Origin: Escherichia phage C6
Sequence record: MW679410.1
Direction: 5' to 3' (one strand)
DNA: 64,000 nt
Shown here: piece by piece, positions 1-10,265 of the stretch
Numbering within the stretch: position 1 is the stretch's first letter
How the letters are laid out: the number at the start of each line of letters is the position of its first letter
Notes under the pieces: model-generated
Databases searched by the model: none
Seen by the model: the letters and a program-made list of their open reading frames with translations, nothing else
What the model was told of the DNA's origin: nothing
Position numbers and translations under genes: made by a program

Positions 1-786
1 ACTTAATGATGGTGAAATATTGAAGTCATTAGGAACCTGTGAACGTTCTAGTGCCAGGACACAAGTTTCTTCATACACACCAGCCAATTTAATAGCTTCA
101 GGCAAAGCCTCGAACTTCTCACGAGAAGTCATGACTTCAGAACCTTCCTTCATATAAAAGGTATATGCAGGGCGTCCGGCCAATGCCACAGCTTCATGGA
201 TAGAGTCATGGTCTAGGGTATAAATGGTGTCATTAAAGAACGATGATTTGTTTACATCTAATTTAGGATGAGAATAGCTCAACGTTTCTTTTTGACGTTG
301 CAGCATAATTTCCTGGAGTTCTTCATTCAGGGTGATACCTTTATTACGAAGGTATTTGATGTGGGACATAGTTTTCAGGAAGAACGGATTATTCTTCAGG
401 AAACGATGAGAGGTTTTGATAGCCAGACAGATATCAGGCGTAGCCCAATAGAAACCTGTAAGACGGTCCTTTTTAATATGATTTTCAGCATATTTCAGGA
501 GACGATAACTTGAGGTGAAATCTTCGTCTTGGAGCTCACCAGTGATTTCACGTACGTTAGTCAGAGCACGAACGATATATGCTTCAAAATAGGTTTCTTT
601 ACCGTTGTACATGCATTTAAAAGCCTGGACATCAGGGTTATCCACAGGAACATGGGCGCCGAACATCCGAGCTTTAAAGTGATTCCATGAGCCTTGGTCG
701 GCAATGAAATCCCAATCAGAATTTTCGATATACTTATTTTCAATCAGACCAGCGTGGTGCAGTGCACGAGAACCAATAACTAGCAT
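1..786 (-). CDS. hypothetical protein, partial (ATG at 786-784, reading frame open to window edge; 3' end outside window)
   Basis: Own reverse-complement translation MMLVIGSRALHHAGLIENKY... runs in frame to position 1 with no stop; absent from ORF track, which appears to list only stop-terminated ORFs. Confidence 0.5.
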   Translation of the reverse strand, partial: MLVIGSRALHHAGLIENKYIENSDWDFIADQGSWNHFKARMFGAHVPVDNPDVQAFKCMYNGKETYFEAYIVRALTNVREITGELQDEDFTSSYRLLKYAENHIKKDRLTGFYWATPDICLAIKTSHRFLKNNPFFLKTMSHIKYLRNKGITLNEELQEIMLQRQKETLSYSHPKLDVNKSSFFNDTIYTLDHDSIHEAVALAGRPAYTFYMKEGSEVMTSREKFEALPEAIKLAGVYEETCVLALERSQVPNDFNISPSLS

Positions 787-808
787 CATAATATTTTCCT
801 CAGTAAAC

Positions 809-1048
809 TTAAATTTCGGCAACGTAAGTGTTATGCAATTCCCACATATCATTGGAATTACTCTCAACGATAGGAATTATCTCATTAGAAATTTCTTCTG
901 CATAAGGGTCATTGATACAGTGAGCATCTTCAAAACGAACACCGTAATCAGACTTCTTATAAGCAAAGCCATAAATCTTTTTAAACTTGGCACGAGTAAT
1001 GCGTACTGGTTCATTAGACTTATCGGACATCGGAGCGTAATACCACAT
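809..1048 (-). CDS. hypothetical small protein (79 aa)
   Basis: ORF track; SD GAGGAG 5 nt upstream of ATG at 1048. Confidence 0.5.
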   Translation of the reverse strand: MWYYAPMSDKSNEPVRITRAKFKKIYGFAYKKSDYGVRFEDAHCINDPYAEEISNEIIPIVESNSNDMWELHNTYVAEI

Positions 1049-1091: not shown

Positions 1092-1421
1092 TTAGAGTTG
1101 TACATCACTTCTGCAATATTCTAAAAATAATTTATCGTTGTCTACCGTATCCCAACGACGCCAAGATGGATTCCAGACCAAAGCGTTGTCACCACAATCA
1201 TTGAGCTTAAAATGGTCGTAGTACATAGCTATACGTCTAGTTTCGTCACCAGAGAACCCCAGTATAGGCTCGCCATGGGTGTGATACATATGATGGTGCA
1301 TTGAGAGGTCGCATTTGTAAAACATCTCACGTTTACCACGAACGAACAAGAAAGCTTGCCCATTCATATAGAATTCTTTATCTGTTTTCAAAAGATATTT
1401 GAATACTGAATCTTTATGCAT
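1092..1421 (-). CDS. hypothetical protein (His-rich segment HHHMYHTH)
   Basis: ORF track; start moved to ATG at 1421 preceded by GGAGG. Confidence 0.5.
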   Translation of the reverse strand: MHKDSVFKYLLKTDKEFYMNGQAFLFVRGKREMFYKCDLSMHHHMYHTHGEPILGFSGDETRRIAMYYDHFKLNDCGDNALVWNPSWRRWDTVDNDKLFLEYCRSDVQL

Positions 1422-1451
1422 AAATCCTCCTACCACATCCATGTGGTTAAA

Positions 1452-1679
1452 TTATTTTCCTAACGAAACACGAGTAGGTTTTTTACCAAAATAGTCTTCA
1501 TAAGAACCATCTAAACGGCCTGCTTTAGACCGACAATACGAATCATACTTTTTGTAATAAGTCATCTCGGTATTATAACGTGGGTGTCTATCGGCCATAA
1601 TAATACTTAGTGGCCAACCTTTGGCATAATCGCGAAGACTGTTTATTTTACGAATGTATCGTTTTTTCAATTTTAGCAT
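1452..1679 (-). CDS. hypothetical basic small protein (75 aa)
   Basis: ORF track; ATG overlaps last codons of upstream paralog (ATGCTAA). Confidence 0.45.
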   Translation of the reverse strand: MLKLKKRYIRKINSLRDYAKGWPLSIIMADRHPRYNTEMTYYKKYDSYCRSKAGRLDGSYEDYFGKKPTRVSLGK

Positions 1680-1897
1680 GAGCTTGGGTACCAGATTTCA
1701 CCATCGGCACGAGCAACGAAGGTACGACCAGCTTCTTCACCATAACAAGAGCTGTTCAGCCAATCTTCGAGACGAACTTCGCCGTCATAATCGTCGAGCT
1801 CAACACCAAAATCCTGAGCAGAAGCCATATCTTTTACTTTCTTATACAGTGCAGCCAGTTCAAGTGCCGCTTTTTCTAATTCATTAATAGTAGTCAT
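1673..1897 (-). CDS. small acidic protein, paralog 5 of tandem family, C-terminus ...EIWYPSSC
   Basis: ORF track trimmed to ATG at 1897 (SD AAGGTG); C-terminal W-x-x-SS-C motif shared with four upstream genes. Confidence 0.6.
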   Translation of the reverse strand: MTTINELEKAALELAALYKKVKDMASAQDFGVELDDYDGEVRLEDWLNSSCYGEEAGRTFVARADGEIWYPSSC

Positions 1898-1907
1898 TTT
1901 TATCACC

Positions 1908-2117
1908 TTAGCAAGACATAGAGGATGTAAACCAGAAACCTTCACCTTCTGGAATACCGTAATCATCACGGACCCATTCGTAATCATCATATTCCGGACT
2001 AGAAGCTGGAATATATTCTTCGCCACCAGCGTGGAAGTGCTGACCTGTTTCGTCAGCCACGGACTGGCCTTTACGTACTAATTCGCGGATTTGTTTTTCA
2101 ATTTCATCAATAGTCAT
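1908..2117 (-). CDS. small acidic protein, paralog 4, C-terminus ...GFWFTSSMSC
   Basis: ORF track trimmed to ATG at 2117 (SD AAGGAA); conserved junction sequence with paralog 5. Confidence 0.6.
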   Translation of the reverse strand: MTIDEIEKQIRELVRKGQSVADETGQHFHAGGEEYIPASSPEYDDYEWVRDDYGIPEGEGFWFTSSMSC

Positions 2118-2127
2118 TTTTATTTCC

Positions 2128-2325
2128 TTAGCATTCGTAAGAGGAGGACACCCAAGAGGTACCACTAATAGTAATACAACCGTTATAAAGCGTGATATGT
2201 CGTTCTAGGTCACGAACACCATCGATATAGATATCAGCTTCTTCGCGTTCTTCTTTACAAATCTGGATAACGTTTTCAATAGCTGCCGCGGCAGTACGGA
2301 TTGCACAATCTAGTTCACGAGACAT
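2128..2325 (-). CDS. small acidic protein, paralog 3, C-terminus ...SWVSSSYEC
   Basis: ORF track; SD AAGGAA overlapping stop of paralog 2. Confidence 0.6.
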   Translation of the reverse strand: MSRELDCAIRTAAAAIENVIQICKEEREEADIYIDGVRDLERHITLYNGCITISGTSWVSSSYEC

Positions 2326-2334
2326 AATAATTCC

Positions 2335-2616
2335 TTAACATTCAGAAGAAGAGGATACCCATCCACCATTTTCTAGGCTGGTAGTGTAATCATGTTGGTT
2401 TACAATAGCGTACTGAGCTTCACCGTATTCTTCCCAGTGGGCAAGGTCGGCTTTCAGGGCGCCAGGAGAATAATAGTCACCGCCCATACCGCGAGCAGGG
2501 TATATATTAAAATGAGTCTCATATTTGTTAGCAATTTCCTCAGCACGACGAATAGCTTTATGGATATCATTTACTGCTTCAGCCAGTTCTTTATTTTTAC
2601 GGTAATCATTCATCAT
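2335..2616 (-). CDS. small acidic protein, paralog 2, C-terminus ...GGWVSSSSEC
   Basis: ORF track; SD AAGGAA overlapping stop of paralog 1. Confidence 0.6.
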   Translation of the reverse strand: MMNDYRKNKELAEAVNDIHKAIRRAEEIANKYETHFNIYPARGMGGDYYSPGALKADLAHWEEYGEAQYAIVNQHDYTTSLENGGWVSSSSEC

Positions 2617-2625
2617 AGCGTTTCC

Positions 2626-2916
2626 TTAGCACATTGCTGAAGAGGAGACCCAAGCACCAACTGTAACGACGCCGTTTTCAACTTCACCGCCGTTGTTTTC
2701 AATTTCATCTTTAAACCACTGGGAGCATTCATAACCGACAGGATAATATGTACGGCCTGAACCATAATCACCGGTACCGAATTGGATACCATACTTATCG
2801 GCAATAGCTTCACATTCATGTTCGATGGTATTCACTTTACGCAACAGGTCATAGATGGCTTTTTCTGCAGATTTTTCGTCGTTGTGTTCTGGGATTTCAA
2901 TTTCAATTTTATTCAT
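2626..2916 (-). CDS. small acidic protein, paralog 1, C-terminus ...GAWVSSSAMC
   Basis: ORF track; ATG overlaps stop of upstream membrane protein gene (ATGA). Confidence 0.6.
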   Translation of the reverse strand: MNKIEIEIPEHNDEKSAEKAIYDLLRKVNTIEHECEAIADKYGIQFGTGDYGSGRTYYPVGYECSQWFKDEIENNGGEVENGVVTVGAWVSSSAMC

Positions 2917-3266
2917 GATTTACATTCCTTAATAAAGATTTCAAGGTCATTACGTTTAGTTTGATTTACATACTCATTATAATTAGCCATCTCTAAAGCA
3001 TATCTCTTACGGATGGGAGCATTCAAAGCGTTTGTATGGCAAATATCATACACAACAGGGATAAAATAAGCCACGACAGCAGGAGCGATTATCATATAGA
3101 AACCCATCTCAATAGGCATGACTCCTTCGATTGCCGCCATAACCGTGGTCATTACCAGACCAACCAGACCTCCTAGCATACCGGTGACAATTCCCATAAA
3201 TAAGGAAATAGCAATATCATATTCAGCCAATTGATAAACATGTGATGAAAGACTAGGCCGTTCCAT
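2913..3266 (-). CDS. small hydrophobic (predicted membrane) protein, 117 aa
   Basis: ORF track 2913..3440 trimmed to internal ATG at 3266 just past stop of upstream gene; long hydrophobic stretches. Confidence 0.55.
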   Translation of the reverse strand: MERPSLSSHVYQLAEYDIAISLFMGIVTGMLGGLVGLVMTTVMAAIEGVMPIEMGFYMIIAPAVVAYFIPVVYDICHTNALNAPIRKRYALEMANYNEYVNQTKRNDLEIFIKECKS

Positions 3267-3795
3267 TTTGAACCTCTTTAGCGTATTCGCGACATTCAGC
3301 AATAAAACGATTAAGCTTCCGTTGTTGTTTTCGAATCTCTGATGTATACTCATTAGCCAAAATAATAAGCTCATCTTTATCGTAATTTTTAATATCCGAA
3401 TAACTCGGGCGGCGGTCGACCATACCAAAGTGGTCACCATTTTCTAACATCAAATAGCATACTAAATGGTAATCATCGTCAGCATCAACAAGCTGTTTAC
3501 AATCACTTGGTTCATTTAAAGCGTATACTGAATAGCATAATCCAGAGAATTCCACTCGTTGAATACCCAGATTTAAGTCAATAATTTCTAAAGCTTCTGC
3601 AAAAGAAAGGTCCTCAGCTAAAGCAAAGATAAAAGGTAATTTGCTAGTGTATCCACGGCTATTTGTTCGACTTAAGAAATCATTGGAATAACCTAAGTCT
3701 TGGCGAATTCTATAAAGAACTGAATTAGTTTCATGTGAAAGACCACTATGCTTAAACCAATCAATATTTGATATCAGGTCATCATATAAACTCAT
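3253..3795 (-). CDS. hypothetical protein (180 aa)
   Basis: ORF track; SD GGAGGAGAGG upstream of ATG at 3795. Confidence 0.6.
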   Translation of the reverse strand: MSLYDDLISNIDWFKHSGLSHETNSVLYRIRQDLGYSNDFLSRTNSRGYTSKLPFIFALAEDLSFAEALEIIDLNLGIQRVEFSGLCYSVYALNEPSDCKQLVDADDDYHLVCYLMLENGDHFGMVDRRPSYSDIKNYDKDELIILANEYTSEIRKQQRKLNRFIAECREYAKEVQNGTA

Positions 3796-4479: not shown

Positions 4480-4509
4480 ATTATACCCTGTCCTCTGAGG
4501 GTTGTAAAC
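4480..4509 (-). promoter_or_regulatory. early-type sigma70 promoter (GTTTAC -N18- TATAAT) for gene 3844..4437
   Basis: -35 GTTTAC and -10 TATAAT read on minus strand, -10 embedded in short inverted repeat. Confidence 0.45.
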
Positions 4510-6217: not shown

Positions 6218-6293
6218 TGGCCGAGACAGTAGGGATCGAACCTACGACCCAGGACTTAGAAGGTCCTTGCTCTTCCTTCTGAGCTATGCCTCG
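6218..6293 (-). tRNA. tRNA-Arg (anticodon TCT)
   Basis: Hand-folded cloverleaf: 7-bp acceptor stem, GCTC/GAGC D-stem, anticodon loop CTTCTAA, T-loop GGTTCGATCC, encoded CCA. Confidence 0.8.
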
Positions 6294-6297
6294 TATT

Positions 6298-6372
6298 TGG
6301 CGGACATGCATGGATTCGAACCATGGACCAATTGATTAACAGTCAACTGCTCTGCCACTGAGCTACACATCC
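6298..6372 (-). tRNA. tRNA-Asn (anticodon GTT)
   Basis: Anticodon loop CTGTTAA, T-loop GGTTCGAATCC, acceptor stem pairs with G-U wobbles, encoded CCA. Confidence 0.75.
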
Positions 6373-6376
6373 AAAT

Positions 6377-6450
6377 TGGTGGCCCTGGGTGGAATCGAAC
6401 CACCATCCAGCGATTATGAGTCGCTCGCTTGACCGTCCAGCTACAGGGCC
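6377..6450 (-). tRNA. tRNA with CAT anticodon (Met or lysidine-type Ile2)
   Basis: Perfect 7-bp acceptor stem GGCCCTG/CAGGGCC, anticodon loop CTCATAA, T-loop GGTTCGATTCC; anticodon arm resembles E. coli tRNA-Ile2 as recalled. Confidence 0.75.
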
Positions 6451-8526: not shown

Positions 8527-8752
8527 TTATTCTACGCCAGCGGCTTTCAAAAGTTTTTTAAGATTGGCCGTGCCTTGAGCAGAAAATGTGACCTTGCCGT
8601 CTTTTTCGCCGATACTCCCGGTCAATTTAGCAAGTTTATCACTAGGGATTTTTTTAAAATCAGCCAATGTACCGTCAAAGGTTTTTGTAACAACTGGCAG
8701 TTGGTCTTCGTGTTTTTTTAGCTTCGGTAATAAATTCTTGATAAGTTTTCAT
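8527..8752 (-). pseudogene. internal-protein-like gene (CTS MKTYQEFITE) interrupted by frameshift at A7 homopolymer
   Basis: ATG at 8752 gives MKTYQEFITEAKK then premature stop; frame shifted by one nt is open to TAA at 8527. Removing one A from the 7-A run (plus-strand T7 at 8713-8719) restores a 74-aa ORF. Confidence 0.5.
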
Positions 8753-8789
8753 TTTGATTTCCGTTTGGTTAGTTTGTTTTGATAGGTCT

Positions 8790-8818
8790 ATAGTATCATG
8801 CCTATAGACCTTGTAAAC
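8790..8818 (-). promoter_or_regulatory. early-type promoter GTTTAC -N17- TACTAT
   Basis: Motif on minus strand upstream of internal-protein genes. Confidence 0.45.
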
Positions 8819-8825
8819 AACTTTT

Positions 8826-9503
<678 letters not shown>

Positions 9504-9511
<8 letters not shown>

Positions 9512-10265
9512 TTTTATTTCCTAATAATTTATCAATAGTAGTGTATAGTTCAGAAAGAGTGCCGTTATTTTCAACAACAACGTCACCAGGTAAAATTGGT
9601 AGACCCGCTTCAGTGATGTGCGAGTCTTGTACTTGACCGGTTTCAGAGCGAACCACATGAATAATCGTAGCACCCATCGCTCTGAGCGAATCAATTTCGT
9701 GTGTTTGACGAACATCAGGTACGACATAGTATTTCGCATCAGAGTATATTTTATCAAAATAGTCTAAAGCGAACAACTTAACCCAATACATCTTATCAAA
9801 TTGGTTAACAATAATATCAGTCCCAAGGGTCTGCATGAGACGACGTACTGACCAATTGTTATTTTTATTTATTACTTCAAACAGTTGGTCTTTTGTTTCT
9901 TCAGACAGATACTGGACTGGGGTAAGACCATAATGATATGCGGTACGAACATCCATTCCTGGAATAGGAAGGATATTATTCAGTTTGACAATAGCATTTT
10001 CAAAGATATCAATCACATCATATGGTTTTAAAGGAAGGATTTCTTCACGGTCGTAACCTATACCTTCAAAACAGTTAAAATCGAGTTTAGGCATATAACT
10101 ACGGTCGAATACAGGGTCATCAGAGATGTATTCATAAGCTTCAGCCAGATACTTTTTAATAGGACCTGCGAGCTGAAATTTTACCGAATCCATATTTTCG
10201 ATTACATAGTTAGCAACGGTATCCTTACCGCTACGTTTGATTCCTACAATTGATATTAGTTTCAT
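9504..10265 (-). CDS. 1: gp1 deoxynucleoside monophosphate kinase
   Basis: P-loop GIKRSGKDT near N-terminus; size and synteny. Confidence 0.9.

Follow-up and report, generated by a model that had tools for sequence, protein, structure and literature searches.

The window analysed here is a stretch of 64,000 nucleotides (nt) from Escherichia phage C6 (sequence record MW679410.1). It contains, at 1673-2916, an array of five consecutive minus-strand genes, in the following called paralogs A to E, whose short acidic products all end in a tryptophan, two serines and a last cysteine. This raises the question of what maintains this common tail, and whether the five genes stand on their own. The answer that emerged is that A to E, as tandem paralogs, belong to a family of small acidic alpha/beta proteins that is widespread but restricted to phages, and that this family accounts for the upstream half of a conserved module with two parts. 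As its downstream half, the module has a gene for a predicted nucleotidyltransferase of the polymerase beta (Pol-beta) fold that resembles the MenT toxins. The genomic linkage between the two halves, which is near-obligate in both directions, is the new point of this study. In a preliminary description of the locus, the array had been taken for a free-standing multigene family; this has to be revised. The enzyme gene, which is partly contained in the window (1-789), lies outside the region that had been considered. The features needed for the argument are the following.

2626-2916, minus strand: paralog A, 96 amino acids (aa), isoelectric point (pI) 4.45; full family member, end GAWVSSSAMC; phrog_899, E-value 3e-23
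2335-2616, minus strand: paralog B, 93 aa, pI 5.06; full family member, end GGWVSSSSEC; phrog_899, E-value 3e-20
2128-2325, minus strand: paralog C, 65 aa, pI 4.48; reduced family member, end SWVSSSYEC; phrog_4882, E-value 2e-36
1908-2117, minus strand: paralog D, 69 aa, ATG at 2117, pI 4.20; full family member, end GFWFTSSMSC; phrog_899, E-value 9e-13
1673-1897, minus strand: paralog E, 74 aa, ATG at 1897, pI 4.18; reduced family member, end EIWYPSSC; phrog_899, E-value 8e-10
1-789, minus strand: 5' part (263 of about 319 codons) of the DUF7277-DUF7275 enzyme gene; start codon at 789, runs off the start of the window
1891-1934: direct repeat at a gene junction, copy 1 (tail of D, Shine-Dalgarno sequence, start of E)
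2111-2154: direct repeat at a gene junction, copy 2 (tail of C, Shine-Dalgarno sequence, start of D)

A family of tandem paralogs with a common tail

The open reading frames (ORFs) and their translations agree with the earlier account of five consecutive acidic proteins of 65-96 aa (pI 4.18-5.06) with a common W-x-(x)-S-S-(x)-C tail. The five genes are also real paralogs. A hidden Markov model (HMM) of the family that was built without the window sequences recognised the whole domain in A (E-value 2e-23), B (4e-24) and D (6e-16), whereas for C (0.03) and E (0.08) the tail alone was aligned. In C and E the domain is reduced to the N-terminal helix and the tail, with the position in the array kept; C has no YGMGGTYYP hairpin, and in D this hairpin is shortened. 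Both reduced types recur elsewhere: the 65-aa type of C is conserved in RB69-like and Klebsiella phages, and the end ...W(Y/Q/H)(P/T/S)SSC of the E type is found across several genera. The similarity is thus not limited to the tail, as A, B and D share the whole domain, and the bodies are not simply divergent, as a helix and the YGMGGTYYP hairpin are conserved.

A profile search against 1.84 billion representative proteins (E-value ≤ 1e-3) resulted in 344 clusters at 50% identity, and among the matches listed 138 of 148 clusters end exactly in a cysteine. The consensus consists of an N-terminal helix (..EAExIADExGxxFxF), the AYGMGGTYYP hairpin, an acidic, tryptophan-rich variable linker and the end GGWxSSSxxC, and the hallmark of the family is a C-terminal G-G-W-x-[S/A/P]-S-S-x-x-Cys. 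By tblastn, members were found in 393 phage records, comprising phages of Escherichia, Aeromonas, Enterobacter, Klebsiella, Serratia, Yersinia and Citrobacter as well as a Pseudomonas Otagovirus. The earlier statement that the family was not recognisable still holds. There was no match above the cut-off in Pfam, no homolog carries a Pfam annotation, and NCBIfam and PADLOC gave no match either. Comparison of the family profile with the PDB sequences returned only designed helical proteins and nothing meaningful, and open-access papers and bioRxiv contained nothing relevant on phrog_899 or on the names of the RB69 ORFs. The PHROG entries 899 (A, B, D and E) and 4882 (C) do already catalogue the family as sequence clusters, both with unknown function, but without a description of the motif and without a connection to the enzyme, which is filed as phrog_2141. 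For paralog A, AlphaFold 2 (AF2) predicts a confident fold (predicted local distance difference test, pLDDT, of 90) that has no structural neighbour in the PDB.

The shared tail of the five genes exceeds what chance would produce: its regular expression picks exactly A to E among the 575 window ORFs of at least 40 aa, but only 13 of 15,259 background ORFs from 80 other phage loci. Among the 138 representatives that end in cysteine, the tryptophan at position -8 is present in 136 and the serines at -5 and -4 in 137. The distance between the serine pair and the cysteine is not fixed over the whole family and ranges from 0 to 3 residues. The terminal cysteine is the only cysteine in 79 of the 138 representatives, paralog B among them, and the median pI is 4.46. 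Additional internal copies of W-x-S-S(-C) are present in 26 of the 138 members, compared with 3.4 +/- 1.9 in shuffled sequences. Paralog E possesses such a copy (DWLNSSC), located 22 residues ahead of the C-terminus, next to its terminal IWYPSSC. The internal copies sit in the acidic linker, as does DWLNSSC in E and RWESSSEGWESSSEGWVSSSSQC in the family member P0083; further cases are P0159 and P0175.

A similarity of this kind could in principle originate at the nucleotide level, from an overlapping ribosome-binding site, from gene conversion or from RNA structure. Some features of the window would fit such an origin, and in outline they had been described correctly before: at the junctions within the array the TAA stop codon is fused to GGA or GGT, which serves the following gene as Shine-Dalgarno sequence at a distance of 7-9 nt from the ATG, and the two junction repeats, which lie 220 nt apart, are 73% identical over 44 nt. 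However, an analysis of 140 distinct tails from related loci refutes this origin, to which we assign practically no probability. At both conserved serine positions all six serine codons are in use, i.e. the TCN codons together with AGC and AGT, and the terminal cysteine is encoded by TGC (102 tails) as well as by TGT (33). The stop codons differ, too (TAA in 104, TGA in 29 and TAG in 2 cases), as does the sequence that follows, with TAAGGA, TAATG, TGATG and others. Moreover, the motif is kept where the next gene starts by an ATGA or TAATG overlap or only beyond a spacer. Since serine and cysteine codons, stop codons and downstream context all vary, the shared tail is not a by-product of the ribosome-binding site but is selected as protein, which had been presumed on the basis of the five window genes. 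The number of copies per locus varies from 1 to 6 in related phages and so does the gene order; together with the 44-nt junction repeat, this fits the proposal that the array has expanded by recombination.

Linkage of the family to the DUF7277-DUF7275 enzyme gene

Between bases 1400 and 3500, the window is 96% identical to Escherichia phage IME08 and to related Dhakavirus genomes of the T4-like JS98 group. On the T4 map, this region corresponds to the interval from e.2 to e.4/e.6, and the tRNA genes of the phage are a few kb away. A DUF7277-DUF7275 protein, the counterpart of IME08 orf116, SP18 gp132 and RB69 ORF134c, is encoded three genes beyond the downstream end of the array. With the array at 1673-2916, the start of the enzyme gene at 789 and minus-strand orientation of both, the array is located upstream on the same strand. 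A corresponding arrangement was seen for two distant members of the family, which were found on long metagenomic contigs (395 kb and 143 kb): on each contig, the family gene is followed, one to three genes further downstream, by that of a DUF7277-DUF7275 protein with a length of about 300 aa.

The linkage was examined in both directions. In the forward direction, 80 IMG/VR loci were chosen by the enzyme alone, with enzyme identities down to 36%. At least one HMM-positive family member was found in 67 of them. These members form arrays of 1-6 genes, and almost all share the strand of the enzyme gene and lie 0-2.8 kb upstream of it. If tails alone are counted, the number of positive loci rises to about 75 of 80. 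A recount that was restricted to same-strand ORFs near the enzyme left 15 HMM-negative loci, of which ten have tail-bearing ORFs upstream and two have no upstream sequence. One of the HMM-negative loci (L082) contains five small upstream ORFs that end in FW(I/V)PSSM(S/E)C. Overall, the tail expression was matched by 230 of 1561 ORFs in the 4-kb zone upstream of the enzyme, against the 13 of 15,259 elsewhere. In many loci the last family gene ends only 2-16 nt ahead of the enzyme gene. In the reverse direction, a DNA pattern for AYGMGGTY gave 39 matches, 18 of them in unrelated sequences and 21 in family loci. In 17 of these 21 loci the enzyme gene follows just downstream; in the remaining four, the available sequence ends within 500 nt on that side.

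Plain synteny as the cause of this linkage could be ruled out. When neighbouring genes were grouped into BLAST clusters, the family accompanied the enzyme in 31 of 52 divergent loci, whereas the next best neighbour cluster did so in 7, and outside the enteric T4-like group no other neighbour co-travels. The module is also present in phages that are not T4-like, for instance in Otagovirus. Phage T4 itself has no family member, no tail-bearing sequence among 1822 ORFs and no homolog of the enzyme; the T4 'nucleotidyltransferase' nrdC.11 was considered as such a homolog and ruled out. Among 100,044 species-representative bacterial and archaeal genomes, the enzyme was found on three contigs of metagenome-assembled genomes only, two of which carry tail-bearing ORFs upstream. 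The module is therefore essentially restricted to phages, and an origin from a cellular toxin-antitoxin or defence system is unlikely.

These results bear on the view, put forward in the preliminary description, that the small proteins are independent, diversifying early effectors that counteract host defence or take over the host. In this case, the adjacency of the enzyme would be inherited gene order. The proteins are indeed small, acidic and tandemly amplified, with variable copy number, and they are encoded in the hyperplastic early region between e.2 and e.4/e.6, downstream of a strong early-type promoter. Also, the array and the enzyme gene are parted by three unrelated genes in the window. 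However, this explanation leaves the linkage unaccounted for, which persists in both directions among phages that share no other neighbour (31 of 52 loci versus at most 7). It also has to deal with the absence of both parts from T4, with the short distance between the last family gene and the enzyme gene in many loci, and with the lack of a match to any defence-related PADLOC model. We therefore regard independent effectors of this kind as improbable.

There are also a few loci with a different neighbourhood of the enzyme. In a T4-like phage in whose locus no family member was detected (L028, IMGVR_UViG_650627040, 165.5 kb), seven tRNA genes (8654-9606) stand directly upstream of the enzyme gene, in the usual place of the array. 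Distant enzyme homologs with 25-34% identity are encoded by a Streptomyces phage, a Gordonia phage and a KVP40-like Vibrio phage, and no W-x-S-S-x-C ORFs adjoin them. Their flank contains another conserved small protein of about 95-110 aa with the motif ...YFK.TGYY.S(W/Y)D...F.EV.P... (L127, 4630-4968 and 5011-5328; L128, 4600-4890; L129, 3756-4052). A small partner may therefore be a general companion of this enzyme class, with one partner replaced by another between subfamilies.

The enzyme and its possible relation to the small proteins

The enzyme is present in 734 phage records and gave 476 homology-search matches (clusters at 90% identity). Pfam assigns DUF7277 and DUF7275 only, open-access papers and bioRxiv contained no literature on either domain, comparison with the PDB sequences gave no match to a solved structure, and a profile search against them found no nucleotidyltransferase. 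The N-terminus, MMLVIGSRAL...NSDWDF, nevertheless corresponds to the G-S...D-x-D signature of Pol-beta nucleotidyltransferases. G5, S6, D24, D26 and E68 are invariant across 50 homologs, so that Pol-beta motifs I and II and the third carboxylate are all present. The AF2 model is confident (pLDDT 92), and its predicted fold is similar to the MenT structures, the nearest structural relatives being MenT/AbiEii enzymes. By its residues and its modelled fold, the protein is thus a nucleotidyltransferase of the Pol-beta type with an intact set of catalytic residues.

The MenT toxins transfer nucleotides onto the acceptor stems of tRNAs (PMC10435456; PMC7450476), and in the DUF1814 family, C-terminal motif III provides a lysine for base stacking and motif IV an aspartate that is unique to this family (PMC7450476). 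In the phage enzyme, K124 (within K-L-S-H-R), H193 and D194 are invariant and D192 is nearly so, and K124 and D192-H193-D194 are found where motifs III and IV would be expected; this correspondence is one of sequence position and not of residue-level superposition. Since there is no Pfam match to DUF1814, we treat the enzyme as MenT/AbiEii-like and not as a member of DUF1814. RlaP, an RNA-ligase-associated nucleotidyltransferase (PMC7824862), was considered as its identity as well and not adopted, as Pfam gives DUF7277 and DUF7275 only. The phage protein also has additional C-terminal motifs of very high conservation, namely SHRYLKNSPHFLKTM, DHDSIHEA, VLALERSQ.P and KVCTSITSGWFREYAW. An invariant cysteine of the enzyme homologs lies within the tryptophan-, serine- and cysteine-rich K-V-C-T-S-I-T-S-G-W-F-R-E, whose composition is loosely reminiscent of the tail of the small proteins.

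By analogy with its structural relatives, the enzyme might act on tRNA or on RNA 3' ends. The proximity of tRNA genes, which were found near the module in all 8 enteric T4-like loci scanned and in 13 of the 52 divergent loci, lends weak support to a tRNA substrate. Among the tRNAs near the module that were predicted by ARAGORN, there are suppressor-like ones with the anticodons TTA, which reads a stop codon, and CTA, which is called 'Pyl' (L017, 4444-4537; L078 and L080, 1114-1189; two metagenomic or phage lineages). On the 395-kb jumbo-phage contig (L004, 1-534 and 5967-6614) and in the Streptomyces phage Blueeyedbeauty (L127, 1872-2531), the module is preceded at a distance of a few kb by genes for RNA ligases, and these neighbours hint at a context of RNA repair.

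The MenAT1 system of Mycobacterium tuberculosis is among the closest known parallels to the module. MenA1, a helical protein of 68 aa whose gene precedes that of MenT1, obstructs the active site of this toxin, and the MenA partners are a diverse group (PMC10435456). In both systems, the gene for a Pol-beta-fold nucleotidyltransferase has directly upstream, in the same orientation, a gene for a small and mostly helical protein, with the difference that three small genes stand between them in the window, and in both the partners of the enzyme class differ between subfamilies. However, the phage small proteins have no sequence similarity to MenA1 or to any PDB chain, so that they do not qualify as MenA1-type antitoxins by similarity, and the enzymes are dissimilar in sequence, too. 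The phage enzyme has about 120 additional, highly conserved C-terminal residues and is accompanied by 1-6 partner paralogs instead of one. These partners possess a beta-sheet and the invariant W-x-S-S-x-x-Cys end, both of which are missing in MenA1, and the module is restricted to lytic phages, whereas MenAT1 is a chromosomal toxin-antitoxin system. AbiE and MenAT3 were compared with the module as well; AbiEi and MenA3 are large COG5340 proteins that act via toxin phosphorylation (PMC7205606, PMC10435456), whereas no AbiEi- or MenA3-like protein is found near the phage gene and the enzyme has no DUF1814 match in Pfam.

We favour the interpretation that the small proteins are dedicated protein partners of the enzyme, and consider it about as likely to be right as to be wrong. 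According to this interpretation, the invariant tail would engage the nucleotidyltransferase, and the bodies, which are variable and amplified in tandem, would adjust regulation or the choice of targets, so that the small proteins might act as pseudosubstrate regulators or as adaptors. The role as regulator or adaptor is preferred because of the MenA1 precedent, the upstream position and the different small protein that is found beside the distant enzyme homologs. A physical contact between small proteins and enzyme, the part of the tail in it and the direction of the effect, be it inhibition, adaptation or use as substrate, can presently be inferred only from these relations.

Several observations weigh against such partners. 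The functional claims are all derived from gene neighbourhood and fold, and tRNA targeting is only an analogy, as the enzyme shows no sequence-level match to DUF1814 or MenT. It would be unusual for one enzyme to have several different partners of an antitoxin-like kind, and a strictly lytic, phage-only distribution does not suit a classical toxin-antitoxin role. Furthermore, a few loci (L028, L046/L047) carry the enzyme and no detectable family member, and in the window the array and the enzyme gene are separated by three unrelated small genes. Finally, an invariant serine pair followed by a cysteine with a free C-terminus resembles a chemical site, i.e. a substrate or ligand site, more than a docking peptide.

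The last point leads to a different relation between the two halves, in which the small proteins are substrates or scaffolds. The enzyme would then nucleotidylate the serine pair, with a nucleoside monophosphate linked to the hydroxyl oxygen, or process the W-x-S-S-x-x-Cys tail in some other way. As a result, the small proteins might be switched on, or a modified C-terminus or a released product might be formed, following the logic of a post-translational modification or of ribosomally synthesised and post-translationally modified peptides (RiPPs). Pol-beta-fold enzymes can nucleotidylate proteins, as GlnD does with PII and MntA with HepT, the latter being a type VII toxin-antitoxin system. 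In these pairs, as in the phage module, the nucleotidyltransferase is combined with a small protein that bears a conserved hydroxyl acceptor; the acceptor in GlnD/PII and MntA/HepT, however, is a tyrosine in a loop of a well-known fold. No homology was detected between these pairs and the phage pair, whose modification is hypothetical. The array also resembles the tandem precursor genes of RiPPs with a C-terminal cysteine, like those of the epidermin and cypemycin type, where several small genes with a serine- and cysteine-containing end stand upstream of an enzyme gene.

A role as substrate would suit the fact that the most conserved positions, the two serines and the terminal cysteine, are the chemically reactive ones, and that the tail outlasts the body where the latter is beyond detection by the HMM. 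The enrichment of internal motifs, including the two motifs of paralog E, would be expected of repeated modification sites, several precursor-like genes lie upstream of one enzyme, and the catalytic residues of this enzyme are invariant. On the other hand, the AF2 model places the tail inside the compact, confidently predicted fold, with W89-S91 in a beta-strand and a pLDDT of 70 for the last block, and not as a free peptide. The small proteins are predicted to be folded and are conserved over the whole sequence, not in a leader alone as would be expected of RiPP precursors. None of the genes for RiPP maturation that were looked for with Pfam (LanB, LanM, LanD, dehydratase, cyclase, decarboxylase, lyase, protease, exporter or transporter) is conserved among the neighbours, where the nucleotidyltransferase is the only conserved gene. 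The varying distance between the serines and the cysteine and the fact that tRNAs, not proteins, are the targets of the closest structural relatives of the enzyme do not favour substrates either. Altogether, we consider this relation a serious alternative, though rather doubtful, at a clearly lower level than that of dedicated partners. A more specific version of it is slightly less probable again: large lytic phages might possess a so far unrecognised protein-modification system in which the MenT-like nucleotidyltransferase acts on the W-x-S-S-x-x-Cys end of the tandemly amplified small proteins with their new fold, by O-nucleotidylation of serine or by cysteine chemistry, and yields modified effectors or a mimic of a tRNA 3' end during infection.

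The terminal cysteine could also have a function of its own. Together with the free carboxylate, it might bind a metal or form a disulfide or persulfide, either between several subunits or with the invariant cysteine of the enzyme, so that the small proteins would be cofactor carriers or redox switches. The single invariant cysteine at the very end of the protein, often the sole one, and the enzyme cysteine within K-V-C-T-S-I-T-S-G-W-F-R-E are in line with this idea. Since the small proteins have no second conserved ligand residue and the idea is purely speculative, we deem it very unlikely.

Whichever relation applies, both halves of the module are uncharacterised and yet abundant. That T4 lacks the module probably explains why it has never been studied. 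It occurs, among others, in phages of Escherichia, Klebsiella, Enterobacter, Aeromonas, Acinetobacter, Pseudomonas and Stenotrophomonas, and therapeutic-type and jumbo phages are among the carriers. Since the enzyme has its closest relatives among toxins that inactivate tRNAs, a phage version with invariant-tailed partners could manipulate or repair the translation machinery in a new way; alternatively, the two halves could represent a novel type of enzyme-partner or enzyme-substrate pair. With tryptophan at -8, the serine pair at -5 and -4 and cysteine as the last residue, the motif is sharply defined and immediately offers point mutants. In addition, the linkage can serve as an annotation rule for thousands of 'hypothetical' genes.

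Gene layout and annotation of the locus

The remaining features of the locus are listed here from the enzyme gene upwards.

809-1048, minus strand: 79-aa ORF between array and enzyme gene; phrog_3723, unknown function
1092-1442, minus strand: intervening ORF of 116 aa, probably 109 aa from the ATG at 1421; phrog_9796, unknown function
1452-1679, minus strand: intervening basic protein of 75 aa, pI 10.0; phrog_7065; ATG within the last codons of E
2913-3266, minus strand: upstream membrane protein of 117 aa; phrog_2330; stop codon overlaps the ATG of A (ATGA)
4480-4508, minus strand: near-consensus sigma-70-like promoter, TTTACA-17 nt-TATAAT, 11 of 12 consensus matches; upstream of an e.6-like gene

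The 79-aa ORF is found in the enteric T4-like group only. The genes from that of the membrane protein to that of the 75-aa protein are translationally coupled, in view of the ATGA overlap, the fusions of TAA with the Shine-Dalgarno sequences and the ATG inside E. Consensus scans revealed no terminator-like site on the minus strand between the promoter at 4480-4508 and the start of the window, so that one early transcript could cover e.6, the membrane protein gene, the array and the enzyme gene. Co-transcription of array and enzyme gene from this promoter-like site (4508-4480) is thus predicted from the sequence. Further upstream, 3.3 kb from the array, tRNA genes for Arg (TCT), Asn (GTT) and Met (CAT) are located on the minus strand at 6218-6450 of the window.

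There are also some irregularities in existing annotations of the module. In the record of IME08 (L002, HM071924; locus coordinates 3274-3663), paralog D has no annotated coding sequence and paralog E is annotated with a long N-terminal extension (orf120) that overlaps D. The enzyme is labelled 'prohead assembly scaffold protein' or 'major capsid protein' in some records, and these labels are apparently the result of shifted annotations.

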